Source of the DNA: Escherichia phage SRT8 | Length of the DNA stretch: 49,579 nucleotides | Direction: 5' to 3' (one strand) | Sequence record: MF996376 | Part shown: positions 1 through 49,579 of the stretch, piece after piece | Position numbering within the stretch: the stretch's first letter is position 1 | Layout: each line of letters begins with the position of its first letter | Notes under the pieces: generated by a model | What the model saw: only the letters and a program-made list of their open reading frames with translations | Told to the model about the DNA's origin: nothing | Database searches by the model: none | Made by a program: the position numbers and the translations under genes

Positions 1-377
1 CACGACGCGGGAAAGATATCAAGCCCCGCCAGCGATGCGGATTCTACATCCTGAAGGACGAAGTACGCGCCGGACTACGCGCCCGACTTGACGCGTTAAT
101 CGAATATTACGGTTCGCCGTCCGCAACAGCTAAGGCGCTGAAAGTGACCAATCAGAACGTGAACGAATGGAAAGTTCGCGGCATGATTTCGTGGCAAGGC
201 GCTGAAGCGGCGCATCGCGCATACCGCCGACAAGGTTGTAAAGGATATCGCGCAAGCTGGCTTCGCTTCGATATCAAGTTCGACAGTAACGGCAAGTGCT
301 TAGAAAAGCGTTGCAAGAATCGCAAGTTTATGCGCGTTGTTCGAAAAGATGAAACGACGCAAAGCACAAATAGCTAA
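1..377 (+). CDS. 5'-truncated ORF for a small basic protein with an XRE/Cro-like helix-turn-helix segment (AKALKVTNQNVNEW)
   Basis: Frame open from window edge to stop at 375-377; HTH-like motif; hairpin plus T-run follows at 384-420. Confidence 0.4.
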   Translation, partial: RRGKDIKPRQRCGFYILKDEVRAGLRARLDALIEYYGSPSATAKALKVTNQNVNEWKVRGMISWQGAEAAHRAYRRQGCKGYRASWLRFDIKFDSNGKCLEKRCKNRKFMRVVRKDETTQSTNS

Positions 378-16847: not shown

Positions 16848-16870
16848 TAGCACGAATTGCTAAAACAGCG
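16848..16870 (-). promoter_or_regulatory. Palindromic element (aatagcacgaattgctaaaaca) just upstream of the G chaperone RBS
   Basis: Consensus match; follows the hairpin at 16906-16930. Confidence 0.45.
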
Positions 16871-28726: not shown

Positions 28727-28747
28727 GTTTAGCAATTCGTGCTAAAA
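28727..28747 (-). promoter_or_regulatory. Palindromic element cassette (TTTAGCA-ATTCG-TGCTAAA, a perfect 7-bp palindrome)
   Basis: Contains the stop codon of the upstream gene; followed by TATAGTAACCCCATCAAAACAAACGGAG leader. Confidence 0.55.
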
Positions 28748-35018: not shown

Positions 35019-35039
35019 GGGTTTTAGCAATTCGTGCTA
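35019..35039 (-). promoter_or_regulatory. Palindromic element cassette
   Basis: AAATAGCACGAATTGCTAAAA with the TAG stop of the upstream gene inside it. Confidence 0.55.
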
Positions 35040-36429: not shown

Positions 36430-36449
36430 GTAGCACGAATTGCTAAAAG
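36430..36449 (+). promoter_or_regulatory. Orphan palindromic element cassette (motif plus hairpin with TATAAC) not followed by a gene
   Basis: gTAGCACGAATTGCTAAAAg then GGGGA...TCCCC hairpin; no ATG with RBS downstream. Confidence 0.45.
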
Positions 36450-38399: not shown

Positions 38400-38551
38400 T
38401 TCGATATTACAACCACGAAACGAAATCATGGTATGTAATCGTAGGTCAACATGTACGCCGCTTAATGAAAGATGGTAGTTGGATTATCTCAGATCGCTAT
38501 AGTGTCGCCGACGTTGCGCATTATCCATTTACCTGGCATCGCGTCAAATAG
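38396..38551 (+). CDS. Hypothetical small protein (51 aa)
   Basis: ATGA overlap; its TAG stop lies in the next palindromic element. Confidence 0.35.
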   Translation: MIRYYNHETKSWYVIVGQHVRRLMKDGSWIISDRYSVADVAHYPFTWHRVK

Positions 38552-38566
38552 CACAAATTGCTAAAA
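38546..38566 (+). promoter_or_regulatory. Palindromic element cassette
   Basis: AAATAGCACAAATTGCTAAAA, hairpin GGGGTA...TACCCC, TGtTATAGT, leader. Confidence 0.55.
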
Positions 38567-43171: not shown

Positions 43172-43293
43172 GAAATACCCCACAATAAAGTTTTAAGTTA
43201 GTGGGGATATAATAACGGAAGGTGGGCAGGAAAGGAACAGCACAAAAAGGAGGCATAAAGCCCCCTTTAGGATAGTGATTTGATTTGTATCAG

Positions 43294-43470
43294 TTATTTG
43301 ACAACAACGAATTCAAGATAATGTCCGCTTAACGGCGCTTGAATTGCCGATCCTTTGCCGTCGTAGATCTCATAAATCCCGCCGCCGTGGTGATAGCCGA
43401 TCGAATAGATTTCGTTAACGTGGAACGGTAAAGATTTAGAGTCGTTGCGAATACACTTAACGCGAGTCAT
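43294..43470 (-). CDS. Hypothetical small protein (58 aa), below the ORF-track cutoff
   Basis: ATG-initiated ORF between the peptide gene and holin. Confidence 0.3.
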   Translation of the reverse strand: MTRVKCIRNDSKSLPFHVNEIYSIGYHHGGGIYEIYDGKGSAIQAPLSGHYLEFVVVK

Positions 43471-43480
43471 GTTGTTTTCC

Positions 43481-43588
43481 TTAAAATCCGTTGAAGTTGC
43501 CAGCTAAAGACAGAACCCACAAGAAGAACCCGGTAACAGCTACGCCAGCAACGAAAGGTACTACGGTTTTGATGATGAAGTCTTTCAT
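43481..43588 (-). CDS. Small hydrophobic peptide (35 aa), possible membrane-active or lysis-timing peptide
   Basis: MKDFIIKTVVPFVAGVAVTGFFLWVLSLAGNFNGF behind a full cassette. Confidence 0.35.
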   Translation of the reverse strand: MKDFIIKTVVPFVAGVAVTGFFLWVLSLAGNFNGF

Positions 43589-43644
43589 TTGTCTATCTCC
43601 TTTGTTTTGATGGGGTAACTATAACTCGTTACCCCGCGTTTGTC

Positions 43645-43666
43645 TTTAGCTATTCGTGCTATTTAT
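43645..43666 (-). promoter_or_regulatory. Palindromic element cassette
   Basis: AAATAGCACGAATAGCTAAAG, hairpin GGGGTAAC/GTTACCCC, TATAGT, leader. Confidence 0.55.
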
Positions 43667-44796
43667 TCGGTCATTTCCGGGCGGTAGATGAAGCGCCCAA
43701 CTTCGCCGAATTTTTTGTCGTACACGATAACCGCCGCTTGTCGGTATGCTCTCCAGCCGCCCCGCGCCGCGTAAGCGTCTTTAGCGCCTAGCTGTCCGTG
43801 TACTTCGTCAATCCCTAGCGTGTGCTCGGTGATTGTTTGATGATGCCAATGTCCGCTATGCGTGTATACGTATTTGCTGTCGCCGAACTCTTCGCGGAAG
43901 TCCGCCGCCATAGCCGCTAAACGCGTGTCGGCTTTCTTCATCGTGTGACCGTGAGTGTAACCCAAAAGCGTTTTACCCCACTTCGTTTTATGTAGAATCA
44001 TCGGGCTAACATCGACATAGACGCGCGGTTCGTCGTCGTAATATGCCGCCATTGCAGCGCGTAGCCAAATCATTCCGGCTTGATCGTGATTGCCTTCAAT
44101 GATTTGCACTTCGACTTCTTCGTGTTTCTCAAGCATTCTTGAGATCGCGCGGCGCGTTGCCCGGATTGCCACGTAAACCAGTTTTGCATAGCGTGAATCT
44201 TGATCCAGAACGTGACCGCTTGCCGGGGTAACTGCGTCCAGACCGTCACTATGCAGGAAGTCACCACCGATTAACAGTACGGCTTTTTTGGCTTCAGGCG
44301 CTACGGTTACGGCGTAGTCGAAATACTTGTTCAACACTTCTTCGGCGATATCAGTAGAATAGTTTTCGCCGGATTCGTGTTTATGGGCTAACGCGCCGAT
44401 ATGAAGATCGAATACCGGGTAAAGCGCAAGCAAGCTTTCTTCAGTGTTCGGCGTTGCGTCGCTTGGCGTCGCTCGCGGAAGGTCTTCACAAAATGCGATT
44501 TGTGCCGCCTTCATTAGTTCGTAAATCTTTTCCTTGTCCTGATCGGTCTTAACCCAACGAACGACTTCGGAACCGTCCGCGCGAATCATTGTCGAAGTAC
44601 CTTTGACCGCGAAGCCTGTCGGGACGTTAGCCGATACGTGCGCGTTTCCGTGGAAGTGACCTTCTTTCGCTAACTTAGCGTGACGCGCTTCGACGGTTCG
44701 AATGTGCATACCGTATTTTTCTGCGATCTCGCGAAGGGTTAGGCCGTTGCTACGCTCTTCGATAAGCTGTTCGGTTGTGATTTTTGCAGTTGACAT
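43663..44796 (-). CDS. Calcineurin-like metallophosphoesterase with N-terminal helix-turn-helix domain
   Basis: Phosphoesterase motifs GDFLH, GNHD, GHTH, GHWH; N-terminal LTLREIAEKYGMHIRTV resembles an HTH. Confidence 0.6.
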   Translation of the reverse strand: MSTAKITTEQLIEERSNGLTLREIAEKYGMHIRTVEARHAKLAKEGHFHGNAHVSANVPTGFAVKGTSTMIRADGSEVVRWVKTDQDKEKIYELMKAAQIAFCEDLPRATPSDATPNTEESLLALYPVFDLHIGALAHKHESGENYSTDIAEEVLNKYFDYAVTVAPEAKKAVLLIGGDFLHSDGLDAVTPASGHVLDQDSRYAKLVYVAIRATRRAISRMLEKHEEVEVQIIEGNHDQAGMIWLRAAMAAYYDDEPRVYVDVSPMILHKTKWGKTLLGYTHGHTMKKADTRLAAMAADFREEFGDSKYVYTHSGHWHHQTITEHTLGIDEVHGQLGAKDAYAARGGWRAYRQAAVIVYDKKFGEVGRFIYRPEMTE

Positions 44797-44881
44797 ATTT
44801 TTACATCCTTACATTACAATTAGATAAATGATAGTGAAAGCTATTACGGGGGTGAATACTACACCAAAAAAGCCGAACATG

Positions 44882-45127
44882 CTACTTCTTCCTAAGCCAG
44901 TTTACAAGGTCTGAAGGCTTCATACCTTCGCCGCCATTGTCGAAAATCATCATGTTTTTAGCCGGGCTATACCACATCTTTATATAACCGCCGCCGCGAC
45001 TGCATAGAACCGTTTCGAAGTCGGAAGGCAACCAATCAGCGAAAGGGATTATTTTAAACACTTCGCCTTCGAACTCTGTTTCCGGGTAACTGTCAAAGTT
45101 ACCGTTTAAGCCGGGTAGCCTTTCCAT
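44882..45127 (-). CDS. Hypothetical protein
   Basis: ORF. Confidence 0.4.
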   Translation of the reverse strand: MERLPGLNGNFDSYPETEFEGEVFKIIPFADWLPSDFETVLCSRGGGYIKMWYSPAKNMMIFDNGGEGMKPSDLVNWLRKK

Positions 45128-45371
45128 TCTTCTGACTCTCCTTAAATTCCTTCATTATGCGCTTACCTTCTTCCCGGTAATATTCTAGACCGGGAACAGC
45201 CGGGACGCGGTGACATTTGCGTGGAAGCTCTTCAATGTAGGTTATCTTCCCGTTACCAATTATGCTAACGTCTTTTATATCTAAATACTTAGCAATTAGT
45301 GCGATCCCGTCCGCAAGCCCTGTTTCTTTTGCGTGTTCCCACACTGCCCGCTTGCCTGATTCTTTAATCAT
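45099..45371 (-). CDS. Hypothetical protein
   Basis: ORF, overlaps neighbours. Confidence 0.4.
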   Translation of the reverse strand: MIKESGKRAVWEHAKETGLADGIALIAKYLDIKDVSIIGNGKITYIEELPRKCHRVPAVPGLEYYREEGKRIMKEFKESQKNGKATRLKR

Positions 45372-45559
45372 GAATCACCTTCTTAACGTCTTCGATAAAG
45401 CTTTCGATCTCTTCGACGCTTGCGCGGTAATATGCCATTTTAAGAAACTTCATAGCGATATCCCAATCGAAGTTACCCGCGTGATATGTGGTTAACTCTA
45501 CGCCTTCACGCGCTGAAGATTGAGCCATTTCGAAAAAGTGTTTATTGATGCGAGTCATT
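45364..45559 (-). CDS. Hypothetical small protein
   Basis: Start at the ATG behind the cassette leader. Confidence 0.35.
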
Positions 45560-45614
45560 TGCTTATCTCCGTTTCGTTTTGATGAAATAATAATACCCGA
45601 CTTTCGCCGGGTAC

Positions 45615-45634
45615 GTTTAGCAATTAGTGCGATC
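45615..45634 (-). promoter_or_regulatory. Palindromic element cassette (variant GATCGCACTAATTGCTAAAC)
   Basis: Contains the stop of the upstream gene; hairpin and TATTAT box follow. Confidence 0.5.
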
Positions 45635-45851
45635 TGACGCCTAAGAATTCGCGCAAGTCGTTTTGTATGATTGAATCCCACAATTCGAACGGCTGATTCT
45701 TTATCTCTTCGAATGACATATCAAGGCAATCCGTAAAACTCCACAAGTCGCCGTCTACCATTTCTTCGACCATCGCGCTTTCAATCGCCGCGCACACCAT
45801 TGCACGATACAGGAGGAATAATTTATTCTCGCCGATAAGTAAAAGTTTCAT
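45624..45851 (-). CDS. Hypothetical protein
   Basis: ORF. Confidence 0.4.
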   Translation of the reverse strand: MKLLLIGENKLFLLYRAMVCAAIESAMVEEMVDGDLWSFTDCLDMSFEEIKNQPFELWDSIIQNDLREFLGVRSH

Positions 45852-46564
45852 TAAATATTCCTCGCTTTTGCACGTTTATTTTTCACTGAAGGGCAAATGT
45901 CCGCAATGCTCACATAATGCGTTTGTTGTGTCTCGCCTTCTTTAAGTTGGCGAATGACGAACAGAACAGAGCCTTTGTTATTTCCGTCTACTGGCTTCCC
46001 GGTAGCGCCCGAAATGAAGGCCAACCGTCCAGATCTGGCGAATTCCGTTCCGTCGATATCTTCCCACAAATCACCCTCGATCCAGATGATTTCCGCCGCG
46101 TTACGTCGCGCTTCTGTAAACCATGCCGTAGAGTTATCGGCAGGTAACAGCATATCAATCTGGTTTCCGTGTTCCATTTGCTCGATCGCTTTCTTAACGA
46201 ACACGTCCGGGCGACTATATGGCGGATTTAGCCAAACGTGTTTATTTTTACCCCACCAGCGTTTTAAGCAGTTTGTTTCCTGCGAATAAAACTTGTCGCA
46301 CACTTTATTTTCTTCGCTGGCGGCGGCGTCAAGATCATATTTACCGAAGCGGCCTTCCATATATGCCACGACTTCGCGCGGAGTAGACCATAAGTCGCGA
46401 ACCGCGTCCGGCGTATTGGTTCCCTTATATCGGCGACCGGATACGATATCTTCAGGGCGCGGCCTTACATATTGATAATGACCGCCAGTTACTAACCCGG
46501 CGCGGGCAAACTCGCAACCTGTGCCGAATGTGTCGATTGTCACTTTATCGTTTTCGTCTTTCAT
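45851..46564 (-). CDS. DNA N6-adenine methyltransferase (Dam-like)
   Basis: NPPY catalytic motif (WLNPPYSRP) in a 237-aa protein. Confidence 0.75.
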   Translation of the reverse strand: MKDENDKVTIDTFGTGCEFARAGLVTGGHYQYVRPRPEDIVSGRRYKGTNTPDAVRDLWSTPREVVAYMEGRFGKYDLDAAASEENKVCDKFYSQETNCLKRWWGKNKHVWLNPPYSRPDVFVKKAIEQMEHGNQIDMLLPADNSTAWFTEARRNAAEIIWIEGDLWEDIDGTEFARSGRLAFISGATGKPVDGNNKGSVLFVIRQLKEGETQQTHYVSIADICPSVKNKRAKARNI

Positions 46565-46933: not shown

Positions 46934-46955
46934 TTTTAGCTATTCGTGCTCTTTT
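46934..46955 (-). promoter_or_regulatory. Palindromic element cassette (motif forms the 3' end of the VRR-NUC coding sequence)
   Basis: AAAGAGCACGAATAGCTAAAA followed by hairpin and leader. Confidence 0.5.
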
Positions 46956-47365
46956 AGCATTTCTTCGACAGCTAATTTAAATTGCTCTACGCCATAGGCG
47001 ACGGCGGCGAATCCTCCACGTTCGCGAACCTTACGCAAGAAAGATTTCTGTTCGTCGCTGACTAGTGACGCCTTTCCTTTGCCCGACTTATTGACGCGCT
47101 TCAATTCGATAGCGCCGAACGGGTAGCGGTGATTAAAACCAATCAGGAACACGAAGTCGCTAACGCCTTTCAATAATCCCGATTGCTGATCTATCATCGC
47201 CGTAACCTTGCTTTTCTCGTTCTCGTTCACGCTATGCCAGAACAGTAATTCAGGATGCCGAACCTTAACGAACGATGTACTTTCAATCTGGTGATTAACC
47301 TCCTTCCGTGTGTCGCTTGGATCGCGTTCGTAGAATTCTAAGTAGTCGCCTTTGTCGGTTATCAT
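46940..47365 (-). CDS. VRR-NUC domain nuclease (PD-(D/E)XK fold)
   Basis: GVSDFVFL...GAIELKR pattern typical of VRR-NUC; ATGA coupling with the helicase gene. Confidence 0.55.
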   Translation of the reverse strand: MITDKGDYLEFYERDPSDTRKEVNHQIESTSFVKVRHPELLFWHSVNENEKSKVTAMIDQQSGLLKGVSDFVFLIGFNHRYPFGAIELKRVNKSGKGKASLVSDEQKSFLRKVRERGGFAAVAYGVEQFKLAVEEMLKEHE

Positions 47366-49413
47366 TGCGGTATTTCCTCCATGCCGAAATCTTTACGGCT
47401 GATTAAGTCTTCTTTCTTCGCGTTCTTGCGGTGCGTCACGCGAACCGGGGCGGCGATGTGGTGCGCGTACTGCATGATCTTGATTGCGTTCTTCATGCCG
47501 ATGAAGTATTTGCGCATCTTCGGATCTGATACGTGCGGCAACACACCTTTAGTTTTCCACAACGTACCGCACACTTTCGCTTCGGATTCCGGGAAGAATC
47601 GTTCGTATGCGTTGAACTCACCTTCGCCGTTATCTAACACGTAATGGAATATTATTCCCTTTCTGTTTTTGGTCAACTGTACTTCGAACTTTTTAACGTC
47701 GTACCAATCGTTTTTCGTGTACGCCTTCCCGGATAGCTTCAGGTTAGGATCGACTAACGACACATCGCAACAACGACAGACACGCGCCACGACGTCATTT
47801 TTCGCCCCGCAACCTTTTACAAGGATCTTACCCGTTTTTTCGTCCTTCTGGTCTTCGCACGTTTGATACGTCCAGAAGTGTTCACATCGCTTTCCGTCGA
47901 TTACGTTAACACAACGGCGGGCGTAAAAGCTGTTTTCGTGTCCGCATAGTTCGCATTTCTTCGGATCTTTACCTGTTTCAAATCGACGTTGGTATTGCGC
48001 TTGCTCAAGTATCGGATCGAAATAAAGTTGCCCTAATTCGTCCATTGTCCCGGCGAAGTCCCAAACAAGATGATCTGTCTTCACCATTCCCGCTTCAATC
48101 TGCCATTTCTTCAGAAGTCGCATTCCGCGCCCTAAAAGCTGAATCAGCAAGGTAAGCGAACCAATCTTGCGGAGGATTACAGAGAAATCCCAATTCGGCA
48201 CGTTCACGCCAGTAGTTAACGCCATAACCTGAAACGTGTACTTAATCTTCCCGGCGCGAACGTCGTCTAAGATTGCCTGTCGTTGCTTCGCGTTGGTCTT
48301 GTCGGTAATGATCGCGTAAGTGCTTCCGGGCGGTAGTGCGGCGGCGGCTTCTTTGCAATGCCTTTGCCCGGCGCAAGTGATTAGAACCGCGTTCCGCTTC
48401 TCCGCCTCCTTTGCGACCATGTGCATAATCTGTTCGGTTAAAGACTTGTTCGCCAGCGCTTCGGCTTCCATCTTTTTCAAGTCTTTGTCGCTGAAGTCCG
48501 CTACGCCGTCTTCGCTGGATGCCGTGAAGCTGTCGTAGTTGTAGTGAACGCCTGAAGTAGATCCGAATACTGTCGGCACAACGGAACCGAATTCGATCAG
48601 GTAGTTGGTATCAATGTTCGTTACCTGCTCACGCCAGAATCCGACCATCTTCGGATTTTCGACAAGAATCGGCACAACTCCGCGATATTCCGATCCGGTC
48701 ATTCCGAACACTCGCAATTCGTGACCGTGAACCTCACGACAACGACGCATCATTTCAACAATGATTACGGTGTACTGTGAACGCTTTGTCCCGGTGACAG
48801 GTAAACCGTCTTTACCGATCAGCGGAATATCGCCATTCATTACGATTTGACCTTTATCCGCCGTCATTTGTTCGTAAGATTCGTCGCCCTCAATCGCTTT
48901 CGCTACGTCTTCCCAATCGACTTGGTGACATTCATCGATCCCGATTACGTGCGGCACGAAGTCGGATAGTTCGTTAAACAGGCCGTTACCGACAGTACCT
49001 TCGGAACCGACTACGATCGGGAAGTAGCAAGACTTGATACCCAGCGACGCGGAAAAGATAGAGTTAGGAACTCCGAAATTGTCGATCTCTTCACTATCCT
49101 GATCGACAATCTCACCCTGTCGGGCAAGAACCATCATTTTCAAGCCCATAGCTTGACACTGTTTCGCAACCATCGCGAAGATGATTGTTTTACCTGCCGA
49201 TACCGACGCCTTCACATAGAACGGGTGTTCGTAGTCCTTACCTAAGCGCTTCGCGATCTCGAAGTACGCCGCGACCTGATATTCGTAAGGCTTAATGTCG
49301 CCGACAGTGAAGCGCTCTTGTGTGCGCATGATATACTCTTCGCCCAGCATTTCGATCTGCTTTTTGATGTTTTGCGTTTTGAAATACTGTCGCGTTTCGT
49401 TGCTAATTTTCAC
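47362..49413 (-). CDS. Superfamily 2 DNA helicase (DEAH/DECH box) with C-terminal zinc ribbon
   Basis: GKT Walker A region, DECH motif (GIDECHQVD), Cys-rich C-terminal segment; GTG start with AAGGA RBS. Confidence 0.75.
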   Translation of the reverse strand: MKISNETRQYFKTQNIKKQIEMLGEEYIMRTQERFTVGDIKPYEYQVAAYFEIAKRLGKDYEHPFYVKASVSAGKTIIFAMVAKQCQAMGLKMMVLARQGEIVDQDSEEIDNFGVPNSIFSASLGIKSCYFPIVVGSEGTVGNGLFNELSDFVPHVIGIDECHQVDWEDVAKAIEGDESYEQMTADKGQIVMNGDIPLIGKDGLPVTGTKRSQYTVIIVEMMRRCREVHGHELRVFGMTGSEYRGVVPILVENPKMVGFWREQVTNIDTNYLIEFGSVVPTVFGSTSGVHYNYDSFTASSEDGVADFSDKDLKKMEAEALANKSLTEQIMHMVAKEAEKRNAVLITCAGQRHCKEAAAALPPGSTYAIITDKTNAKQRQAILDDVRAGKIKYTFQVMALTTGVNVPNWDFSVILRKIGSLTLLIQLLGRGMRLLKKWQIEAGMVKTDHLVWDFAGTMDELGQLYFDPILEQAQYQRRFETGKDPKKCELCGHENSFYARRCVNVIDGKRCEHFWTYQTCEDQKDEKTGKILVKGCGAKNDVVARVCRCCDVSLVDPNLKLSGKAYTKNDWYDVKKFEVQLTKNRKGIIFHYVLDNGEGEFNAYERFFPESEAKVCGTLWKTKGVLPHVSDPKMRKYFIGMKNAIKIMQYAHHIAAPVRVTHRKNAKKEDLISRKDFGMEEIPQ

Positions 49414-49426
49414 GAATTTTAATCCT

Positions 49427-49455
49427 TTGCGTAGATGCTTCGTTGATTGTATAAT
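49427..49455 (+). promoter_or_regulatory. Sigma70-like promoter (TTGCGT, 17-bp spacer, TATAAT) for the rightward gene at 49508
   Basis: Hexamers and spacing counted directly; palindromic element 49475-49493 sits in the leader. Confidence 0.55.
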
Positions 49456-49507
49456 ACACGCATTGACGAAACAGTTTTAACAAAAAATGCTATTGAGGAA
49501 TTTACTA

Positions 49508-49579
49508 TGACGATGAAACGTATTGCAGAATCAACTGGTGAAATCGACCGTCGCCACATCAACGGGAATAATGGTACAC
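49508..49579 (+). CDS. 3'-truncated ORF starting MTMKRIAESTGEI, runs off the window edge
   Basis: ATG with GAGGAA RBS after promoter; only 24 codons visible. Confidence 0.3.

Follow-up and report, generated by a model that had tools for sequence, protein, structure and literature searches.

The T1-like Escherichia phage SRT8 (Drexlerviridae; sequence record MF996376; the window is the whole stretch of 49,579 nucleotides analysed here) encodes, as the last gene of a leftward operon, a 377-residue protein in which an N-terminal helix-turn-helix (HTH) domain is fused to a calcineurin-like metallophosphoesterase (MPE) domain. The catalytic residues of this HTH-MPE protein are conserved throughout its family, and we consider it probable that the protein is a DNA nuclease. 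On balance, we favour a DNA-tethered MPE nuclease that works independently of Rad50 and contributes to the breakdown and salvage of host DNA, to the processing of DNA ends, or to both. Neither the gene nor the fold is new. The orthologous T1 gp16 was sequenced in 2004, and the SRT8 protein belongs to a catalogued phage family within a well-known enzyme superfamily.

The protein is annotated as 'hypothetical protein' in the SRT8 record. It matches PHROG 704, 'DNA repair exonuclease', over nearly its entire length (E = 5.7e-155; residues 4-376 against profile positions 2-389 of 390), and by sequence comparison it is the ortholog of T1 gp16/ST16. The two proteins share 71% identity over their full length, their HTH sequences are identical, and both genes are the last before the lysis cassette. 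We found no substantive difference between them; the name 'DNA repair exonuclease' is itself a prediction. The gene region is 97.5% identical to that of phage BrunoManser and about 80% identical to that of vB_EcoS_IME347 (Drexlerviridae).

The catalytic domain is complete and conserved

A previous interpretation of this DNA, hereafter the sequence-only reading, had described the protein as a metallophosphoesterase fused to an N-terminal HTH domain. This architecture is borne out by the motifs, by an alignment of 51 family members (32-67% identity to the SRT8 query), by family-level profiles and by an AlphaFold2 model made from the family alignment (pLDDT 92.7, pTM 0.81). The MPE domain was said to fill the C-terminal two-thirds, and it does so, with residues 119-377 making up about 69% of the protein; in the model this domain has the MPE beta-sandwich fold.

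All five calcineurin-like motifs (DxH, GD, GNH[DE], H and GHxH) are present in the SRT8 protein. The sequence-only reading had claimed a full motif set, and the set is in fact more complete than the one it quoted. GDFLH (178), GNHD (235) and GHWH (315) were exact, while the quoted 'GHTH' is really the string T-H-G-H-T at residues 281-285, and motif I, D130-L-H132, had been overlooked. Nine residues (D130, G178, D179, N236, H237, G274, H282, G315 and H318) are invariant across the 51-sequence alignment and four more (H132, H182, D238 and H316) are retained by 90% or more of the sequences, so that each of the five motifs is either invariant or conserved at that level. That the metal ligands are retained so strictly speaks for an active enzyme. 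It also makes a pure regulator, which was among the earlier suggestions, unlikely.

The same alignment revealed conserved features that are specific to the family. These are a WVK motif (W81, K83), D340 and an insert after motif II (VTPASGHVLDQDSR in SRT8; family pattern VTPxSGHxLDxDxR), of which residues T190, L197, D198 and R202 are kept in at least 90% of the sequences. The insert probably makes contacts with the substrate.

Profile HMM searches, which the sequence-only reading had proposed as a check, left both domains of the single SRT8 sequence below the Pfam cutoffs and confirmed both at the level of the family. For the catalytic domain, the SRT8 protein scored 16.8 bits against Metallophos_2 (cutoff 27). 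The Metallophos profile matched 13 of the 51 family members (E <= 0.01), and one of the family, P0157, reached 25.1 bits, above the cutoff of 21.5.

The HTH domain is an accreted module

The first 110 residues had been said to contain an HTH-like segment. Both the profiles and the model place a three-helix HTH at residues ~5-45, with recognition helix HIRTVEARHAKLAK. Again, the SRT8 protein alone stays below the cutoffs (HTH_23, 16.2 versus 24.6 bits; Sigma70_r4_2, 13.7 versus 25.7 bits), while among the 51 family members Sigma70_r4_2 matches ten (best E 1.5e-9), HTH_23 seven and GerE five. The family profile also matches the GerE/LuxR HTH structure 1fse (E = 0.003). The AlphaFold2 model has the HTH helices at residues 8-16, 21-27 and 32-44 (pLDDT 92-95), followed by a linker at 41-60 (pLDDT 69-76), a beta-hairpin at 62-86, a helix at 88-104 and then the MPE sandwich. 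The stretch between the HTH and MPE domains matched no Pfam family, and the model shows only the hairpin and the helix there; we call this conserved segment the neck.

Other family members show how these parts relate to each other. A 317-residue homolog in Campylobacter phage F375 has no HTH and begins at the hairpin. Because HTH-less homologs retain the neck, it belongs with the catalytic core. Conversely, a 482-residue member carries two HTH modules. With HTH-less and double-HTH versions of the same core in one family, the HTH is best seen as an accreted module; its helices are the least conserved part of the 51-sequence alignment. An N-terminal module is nonetheless the rule in the family, as 92 of the 94 proteins in which a WxK[ST] motif could be located, among the 150 best representatives, have at least 60 residues preceding that motif. 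A ParB-like N-terminus suspected in family member P0221 was not confirmed at E <= 0.001.

A large family and a core gene of Drexlerviridae

The HTH-MPE family is very large. In an exhaustive HMMER search, 4637 clusters (50% identity) reached E <= 1e-3, and 998 of these reached E <= 1e-30; most contain proteins of 370-420 residues that align over their full length. Using tblastn, we found members of the family in 2040 of the 50,697 phage records searched, including Drexlerviridae, Jerseyvirus, Kagunavirus, Jedunavirus, phages of Vibrio, Ruegeria and Flavobacterium, and 130-kb Campylobacter myoviruses. It is a core gene of Drexlerviridae, where the exonuclease gene is retained in 508 of 522 genomes (PMC13164509). 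The annotations of the homologs conflict with each other and include DNA repair exonuclease, phosphoesterase, DNA polymerase II small subunit, winged-HTH protein and transcriptional regulator.

Structural relatives and the choice of substrate

The top Foldseek matches of the AlphaFold2 model are Mre11, and judged by this model the nearest characterised relatives appear to be DNA nucleases, namely PolD DP1 followed by Mre11 and SbcD. Like Mre11 and SbcD, the SRT8 protein has the motif pattern DxH / GDxxH / GNHD / H / GHxH, and genes of its family lie in DNA repair and recombination neighbourhoods. Unlike them, it has an N-terminal HTH and a hairpin neck, and it lacks a capping domain, as the chain ends at residue 377, directly after the last MPE strands. 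Mre11 and SbcD chains align to the model over only 180-191 residues. A further difference from Mre11 concerns its partner. No Rad50/SbcC was found in the 10 of 13 other open reading frames (ORFs) of at least 250 residues that were scanned, all of which have other functions (the other three, of 325, 260 and 254 residues, are in the head-gene region), and no Rad50/SbcC-type gene is annotated in the T1 record. PdeM, the Pseudomonas 'Nuclease MPE' that acts as a ligase-associated single-stranded DNA endonuclease, is likewise a small stand-alone MPE DNA nuclease in a repair cluster, although it has no HTH. Searches with the single SRT8 sequence were less informative, with no match in the PDB (phmmer) and nothing near any cutoff in NCBIfam.

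In the Foldseek comparison, the cyclic-nucleotide phosphodiesterase Rv0805, GpdQ and LpxH score nearly as high as the nucleases. With such a modest margin over generic phosphodiesterases, the fold alone does not fix the substrate. The protein might thus act on something other than DNA backbones: as an end-healing 3'-phosphatase or 2',3'-cyclic phosphodiesterase beside the phage's kinase-only polynucleotide kinase, as a cyclic-nucleotide phosphodiesterase that degrades immune signals, or as a protein phosphatase. The MPE fold supports all these chemistries, and a polynucleotide kinase (PNK) or HAD-PNKP gene lies directly downstream of the homolog in Webervirus and in locus L013. In addition, the T1 PNK gene measures only 531 nucleotides (~176 residues), a length that would be too short for both domains of the ~300-residue T4 Pnkp. 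Still, we regard this whole group of substrates as improbable. A small-molecule phosphodiesterase would hardly be expected to carry an HTH and to be encoded in a conserved DNA-module context, and L013 already has a HAD phosphatase beside its homolog. A search of the PADLOC anti-phage defence profiles with the SRT8 protein gave no family at E <= 1. As for protein phosphatases, motif II reads GDFLH and not GDxxDR as in the PPP type, and neither the GDxxDRG and GNHE motifs nor a PPP fold as the closest structural match was found.

The similarity to DP1, a 3'-5' proofreading exonuclease of archaea, raises the question of whether the protein could be a proofreading subunit that serves a DNA polymerase. 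Several GenBank records name homologs 'DNA polymerase II small subunit', and TLS gp66 is listed as a 'proof-reading exonuclease' (PMC11447400). However, T1-like phages encode no DNA polymerase (PMC11447400). The SRT8 protein is only 11% identical to DP1 and has an HTH where DP1 has its N-terminal and OB domains; no Pfam family was detected in the intervening region, in searches that did not include a test aimed at the OB domain. The DP2 partner of DP1 is also missing, and we know of no DP2 in bacteria or phages. Some phages with a homolog do have a polymerase (Pol A in L013 and Jerseyvirus, an unclassified 'DNA polymerase' in Jedunavirus) and others have none, which indicates that the family is not tied to one polymerase. 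A proofreading role is therefore extremely improbable.

Homologs occur in replication, repair and nucleotide-metabolism modules

The SRT8 operon runs from a helicase through VRR-NUC, a 103-residue ORF, Dam methylase and four small ORFs to the HTH-MPE gene. SRT8 also carries a RecE-like exonuclease VIII, Erf and single-stranded DNA-binding protein (SSB) set. A position downstream of a helicase and a Dam methylase is shared by Drexlerviridae and Jedunavirus, where the order is helicase, Dam methylase, primase-helicase, two small ORFs and HTH-MPE. In Webervirus the gene is directly followed by a polynucleotide kinase and a dNMP kinase, and this pair is often found directly after the exonuclease gene of Drexlerviridae (PMC13164509).

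For distant homologs, too, the gene stands at the end of a replication or nucleotide-metabolism module. The L013 module has DNA polymerase A upstream, followed by Endonuclease VII, the HTH-MPE homolog, HAD-PNKP and a dGTP diphosphohydrolase. The homolog follows a primase-helicase and a FEN in L014, has MazG directly upstream in L015, and lies among topoisomerase II, ribonucleotide reductase and ligase genes in a 125-kb phage. The HTH-less homolog of F375 (L007, 4998-5951), annotated as 'putative recombination endonuclease', is located directly after a DNA ligase, and its cluster also includes a Holliday-junction resolvase. Together with the invariant catalytic residues and the accreted HTH, these contexts support one of the suggestions of the sequence-only reading, that the protein is a nuclease targeted to DNA.

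Two further arrangements were seen. In Jerseyvirus T102 (L008, 16778-19311), the gene is part of a reverse-oriented block of four (DNA-binding protein, small ORF, HTH-MPE, small ORF) that sits between the genes for a tail protein and a tail assembly chaperone, away from the replication module. In L004 (8520-11245) and L014 (7001-9284), two unrelated metagenomic phages, the homolog adjoins lysis genes as it does in Drexlerviridae, the neighbours being a lysozyme, a GTA-type holin and an M48 peptidase. This recurring adjacency may only reflect the borders of modules.

Possible roles in host-DNA breakdown or end processing

According to the 2024 re-annotation of TLS, phages T1 and TLS break down the genome of their host and recycle its nucleotides, by means of a gene that had yet to be identified (PMC11447400). 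For T5, the protein A1 was found to be necessary and sufficient for host DNA degradation, and it is a predicted metallophosphatase that resembles double-strand-break-repair and proofreading nucleases of the Mre11/DP1 kind (bioRxiv 10.64898/2026.04.02.716235). It is because of this gap in T1 and TLS and the precedent of A1 that we favour host-DNA breakdown. As the main role of the SRT8 protein, we put forward host-DNA degradation and salvage only tentatively. The processing of recombination or replication intermediates as the main role is a possibility that we rate as rather doubtful. End or branch processing is nearly as likely as host-DNA breakdown, and both may coexist, as in T4 gp46/47.

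The proposed enzyme would be a two-metal DNA phosphodiesterase of the Mre11/SbcD/DP1 branch, probably using Mn2+ and acting without a Rad50/SbcC ATPase. Expressed as the last gene of the replication operon, it would consist, in order, of the sigma-r4/LuxR-type HTH, a flexible linker, the conserved beta-hairpin neck and the catalytic domain. The HTH would tether the enzyme to duplex DNA, where the MPE domain would hydrolyse phosphodiester bonds, either as an exonuclease from ends or nicks, as an endonuclease on single strands or hairpins, or as both. Breakdown of the host chromosome would then feed nucleotide recycling, possibly overlapping with the processing of ends for recombination-dependent replication, a role that would resemble those of T4 gp46/47 and T5 A1.

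The resemblance to A1 extends to its design. Five A1-family proteins (P0376, P0378, P0379, P0406 and P0418; ~530 residues, 46-48% identity to A1) have an N-terminal HTH at residues ~8-44 that scores above the Pfam thresholds (HTH_23, CENP-B_N and HTH_7), and the C-terminal part of the family carries the MPE motif set GDIH, HDVxDF, SNHD, GxHGH and GHTH. With an N-terminal HTH in many of its members, the A1 family shares the 'HTH plus MPE' layout, although A1 itself (L006, 1706-3376) had no Pfam match. Phages of the SRT8 type are also, like T5, virulent coliphages that recycle host nucleotides. Differences are that A1 is longer (556 residues, with ~250 extra residues between HTH and MPE), that it belongs to PHROG 1745 instead of PHROG 704, and that it is also needed for second-step DNA transfer. 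A search of BFVD with the fold yielded many viral relatives, and none of the top 50 targets had the 556-residue length of A1. Close homology to A1 was rejected, as single-sequence and profile tests leave it as an architectural analogue only.

Alternatively, the protein could be a dedicated recombination and repair nuclease, a Rad50-independent analogue of Mre11 that opens or resects ends, hairpins and branches. It would then work with the RecE-like exonuclease VIII, Erf, SSB and the VRR-NUC resolvase in concatemer formation and packaging, and take no part in host-DNA degradation. Mre11 and SbcD are among the top structural neighbours, VRR-NUC is encoded in the same operon, and SRT8 has the RecE/Erf/SSB set. 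The resolvases and ligase near some homologs (the ligase and Holliday-junction resolvase of F375, Endonuclease VII in L013) and the single homolog on a contig with lambdoid-type genes point the same way. Conversely, no Rad50/SbcC was seen among the scanned ORFs, there is no room for a capping domain, and the recurrent nucleotide-pool neighbours (dNMP kinase, MazG and dGTP diphosphohydrolase) point to salvage. We consider such exclusive dedication possible, if on the unlikely side. Repair and salvage are not mutually exclusive in any case, and T4 gp46/47 serves both host-DNA degradation and recombination (10.64898/2026.07.21.739742).

Several points weigh against the nuclease that we favour and against its role in host-DNA breakdown. 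Our literature search found no biochemical or genetic data for any family member, and queries on the HTH-MPE fusion, the function of T1 gp16 and the sequence of the repeat element discussed below found no experimental work on the protein; papers on daunorubicin abortive infection, Avs7, bacterial NACHT proteins and Metis proved to have no bearing on it. Profile comparisons with known nucleases gave insignificant scores, both for Mre11 when the family profile was compared to the PDB (Thermotoga Mre11, E = 0.43) and for PdeM (TIGR04123 in NCBIfam, 16.3 bits versus a cutoff of 150). An hhalign comparison of the 51-sequence profile with a 27-sequence A1 profile aligned only 26 columns of the HTH at 38% probability, with no similarity at the MPE level. 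Moreover, A1 is a pre-early gene, whereas the HTH-MPE gene closes its operon and immediately precedes the lysis cassette. One homolog is on a contig with NinH/NinX-type lambdoid genes, which is a poor fit with wholesale destruction of host DNA. Finally, the sparing of the phage's own DNA is unexplained.

A repeat element in promoter-like units

The SRT8 genome contains many copies of a palindromic element, TAGCAC-N3-TTGCTA(AAAC), with arms TAGCA and TGCTA. At up to two mismatches we counted 43 matches where 3.4 were expected, 28 of them with at most one mismatch; the element was picked up by a k-mer count but not by a generic inverted-repeat scan. In the divergently transcribed region, the copies follow the local direction of transcription, and most come directly behind a stop codon. 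Five Drexlerviridae genera share the consensus, with 3.9-5.8 copies of the element per 10 kb. The element corresponds to the 21-nucleotide repeat aaATAGCACnnnTTGnTAAAA published for TLS, which was also noted in T1, Rtp and Rogue1 and which, the TLS authors proposed, might act as a stoperator, an enhancer site or an UP element (PMC11447400).

A hexamer that matches TATAAT in at least five of six positions is located 21-23 nucleotides 3' of the element in 20 of the 28 copies, and the consensus across copies includes the TG of an extended -10. This fixed spacing places the element at about -49 to -35, with its centre near -42. It also suggests that the element marks activator-dependent promoters. 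In 20 of the 28 copies, the -10 is overlapped or directly adjoined by a stable hairpin (z < -2) whose stem is specific to that copy.

One such unit, at 43611..43661 on the minus strand, lies outside the HTH-MPE gene, immediately beyond its stop codon. By its sequence, it is promoter-like for the downstream small ORFs and the lysis cassette. In the T1 record, the element after gene 16 is followed within a few nucleotides by an annotated rho-independent terminator. A scan of intergenic hairpins at 43200-45400 in SRT8 gave no terminator-like site in the direction of transcription. The one hairpin in this interval was rejected as an intrinsic terminator, as it scored in antisense only, and the sense strand continues CATCAAAAC with no U-tract.

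Candidate binders of the element

The sequence-only reading had named the HTH-MPE protein as a candidate binder of the palindromic element, and this suggestion is not supported. It would have the HTH bind TAGCA-N5-TGCTA, and the protein, which might be bifunctional, regulate transcription from T1-type promoters. Some of the evidence is compatible with this. The HTH is of the sigma-r4/LuxR type, the right arm TTGCTA resembles a -35 hexamer, and the spacing of the arms, 10 bp, would suit a dimeric HTH protein. Mre11-type MPE domains dimerise. A copy of the element begins two nucleotides after the HTH-MPE stop codon, some GenBank records call homologs 'transcriptional regulator', and T5 A1 is annotated as required for the shutoff of host and pre-early gene expression.

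Other observations argue against it. There are no copies of the element in Jerseyvirus T102 or Jedunavirus PCCM_KpP_22, whose homologs are full-length HTH-MPE proteins with 46% and 43% identity, respectively. The Jerseyvirus genome, the only one searched de novo, contained no other repeated motif. The Jerseyvirus recognition helix, SRRNVQLRSARLAK, resembles the NIRNVELRRSKLAK of Braunvirinae. With its 2040 records, the family extends far beyond Drexlerviridae. Furthermore, no element was found within 400 nucleotides upstream of the HTH-MPE gene, the HTH helices are less conserved than any other part of the family, and a Cro/YdaS-like regulator matches the distribution of the element better. 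We thus regard regulation of these promoters by the HTH-MPE protein as very improbable. The same low probability applies to a bifunctional version, with two HTHs in an MPE-mediated dimer that bind the element (~-42) of ~20-28 promoters while the enzyme degrades host DNA. If that were true, a single protein would both destroy the host template and, linked to this, activate or switch the transcription programme of the phage, as a T1 counterpart of the pleiotropic T5 A1.

The Cro/YdaS-like regulator, a homolog of T1 gp23, is encoded by an ORF split by the window ends, with its ATG at 49507 and its end at 377. We found it in 823 phage records, nearly all of which are from enterobacterial phages similar in size to Drexlerviridae. 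The regulator's TGTATAAT box (49448-49455) and the -10 of the divergent promoter of the helicase operon overlap. The copy of the element at 49478-49492 is in the regulator's 5' leader, between that box and the start codon, and at the same time at -49 to -35 of the divergent promoter. This geometry, read from the sequence, suggests an autoregulated activator. Given the copy in its leader and this layout, the Cro/YdaS-like protein would seem a better candidate binder of the element than the HTH-MPE protein. Covariation cannot decide between the two candidates, as the recognition helices of both proteins vary similarly across the five genera while the element stays constant. Separately, 20 records labelled as Campylobacter phages also match the Cro-like regulator, which is unexpected for that host.

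Neighbouring genes and feature coordinates

Downstream of the HTH-MPE gene are the promoter-like unit, a 35-residue membrane ORF, a DUF7244/SH3 ORF and a holin-endolysin-spanin cassette. The 35-residue ORF, MKDFIIKTVVPFVAGVAVTGFFLWVLSLAGNFNGF (43481-43588, minus strand), was not on the ORF list. Preceded by a good GGAG ribosome-binding site and predicted to form one hydrophobic helix, it stands first in the lysis cassette, with the HTH-MPE gene on one side and the SH3-like ORF on the other. The next ORF (43294-43470, minus strand) encodes a 58-residue DUF7244 protein (E = 1.8e-29); this protein is a stand-alone SH3 domain and an accessory part of the Drexlerviridae lysis module (PMC13164509).

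Within the operon, a 105-residue ORF with a GTG start (45364-45681, minus strand) has probably been over-extended by the program that called it. A unit of repeat, hairpin, -10 and Shine-Dalgarno sequence inside this ORF (element at 45618-45632) points to an internal ATG (MTRINKHF...), in agreement with a 198-nucleotide gene annotated in IME347. A second in-ORF copy of the element is located at 45290-45304. The coordinates of the main features are listed in Table 1.

Table 1. Features of the HTH-MPE gene, its operon and the repeat element in the SRT8 window.
Feature	Position	Strand	Basis or remark
HTH-MPE gene, complete ORF, 377 residues plus stop	43663..44796	-	ATG start; ortholog of T1 gp16 (ST16); PHROG 704
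Shine-Dalgarno-like AAGGA, 8 nt 5' of the HTH-MPE ATG	44806..44810	-	sequence read directly
N-terminal three-helix HTH, residues ~5-45, sigma-70 region 4 / LuxR-GerE / HTH_23 type	44662..44784	-	profiles, model
Neck, beta-hairpin and helix, residues 61-105, conserved (KG-S...G...WVKT)	44482..44616	-	alignment, model
Calcineurin-like MPE catalytic domain, residues 119-377	43666..44442	-	alignment, family profiles, model, fold search
MPE motif I, D130-L-H132	44401..44409	-	alignment and sequence
MPE motif II, G178-D-F-L-H182 (GDxxH)	44251..44265	-	alignment and sequence
Conserved family-specific insert 3' of motif II, VTPASGHVLDQDSR	44191..44232	-	alignment and sequence
MPE motif III, G235-N-H-D238	44083..44094	-	alignment and sequence
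MPE motif IV, H282-G-H284 (string THGHT)	43945..43953	-	alignment and sequence
MPE motif V, G315-H-W-H318	43843..43854	-	alignment and sequence
T1-type repeat TAGCACGAATAGCTA	43647-43661	-	starts 2 nt after the HTH-MPE stop codon
Hairpin GGGGTAAC/GTTACCCC	43611-43636	-	follows the T1-type repeat downstream of HTH-MPE
TATAGT, -10-like hexamer	43618-43623	-	enclosed by the hairpin GGGGTAAC/GTTACCCC
Helicase	47362-49413	-	head of the leftward operon
VRR-NUC	46940-47365	-	leftward operon, after the helicase
Dam methylase	45851-46564	-	leftward operon
Cro/YdaS-like HTH regulator, 149 residues, T1 gp23 homolog	49443-49579 joined to 1-377	+	split by the window ends
Element copies (examples)	16848-16862, 36431-36445, 38549-38563	+	at most one mismatch
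Element copies (examples)	28730-28744, 35025-35039, 43647-43661, 49478-49492	-	at most one mismatch

Implications

The HTH-MPE family is one of the larger uncharacterised families of phage enzymes, and its Drexlerviridae carriers are notorious contaminants of laboratories and fermentations as well as common isolates for phage therapy. The fusion of an HTH to the MPE core, without Rad50, is a departure from canonical Mre11, and the HTH-MPE gene is a testable candidate for the gene by which T1 and TLS degrade host DNA. Should the host-degradation role fail, the gene would still encode a core nuclease of the replication module. If it holds true, an HTH plus a Rad50-independent Mre11-like nuclease would be a recurrent solution of phages for dismantling the DNA of their hosts.

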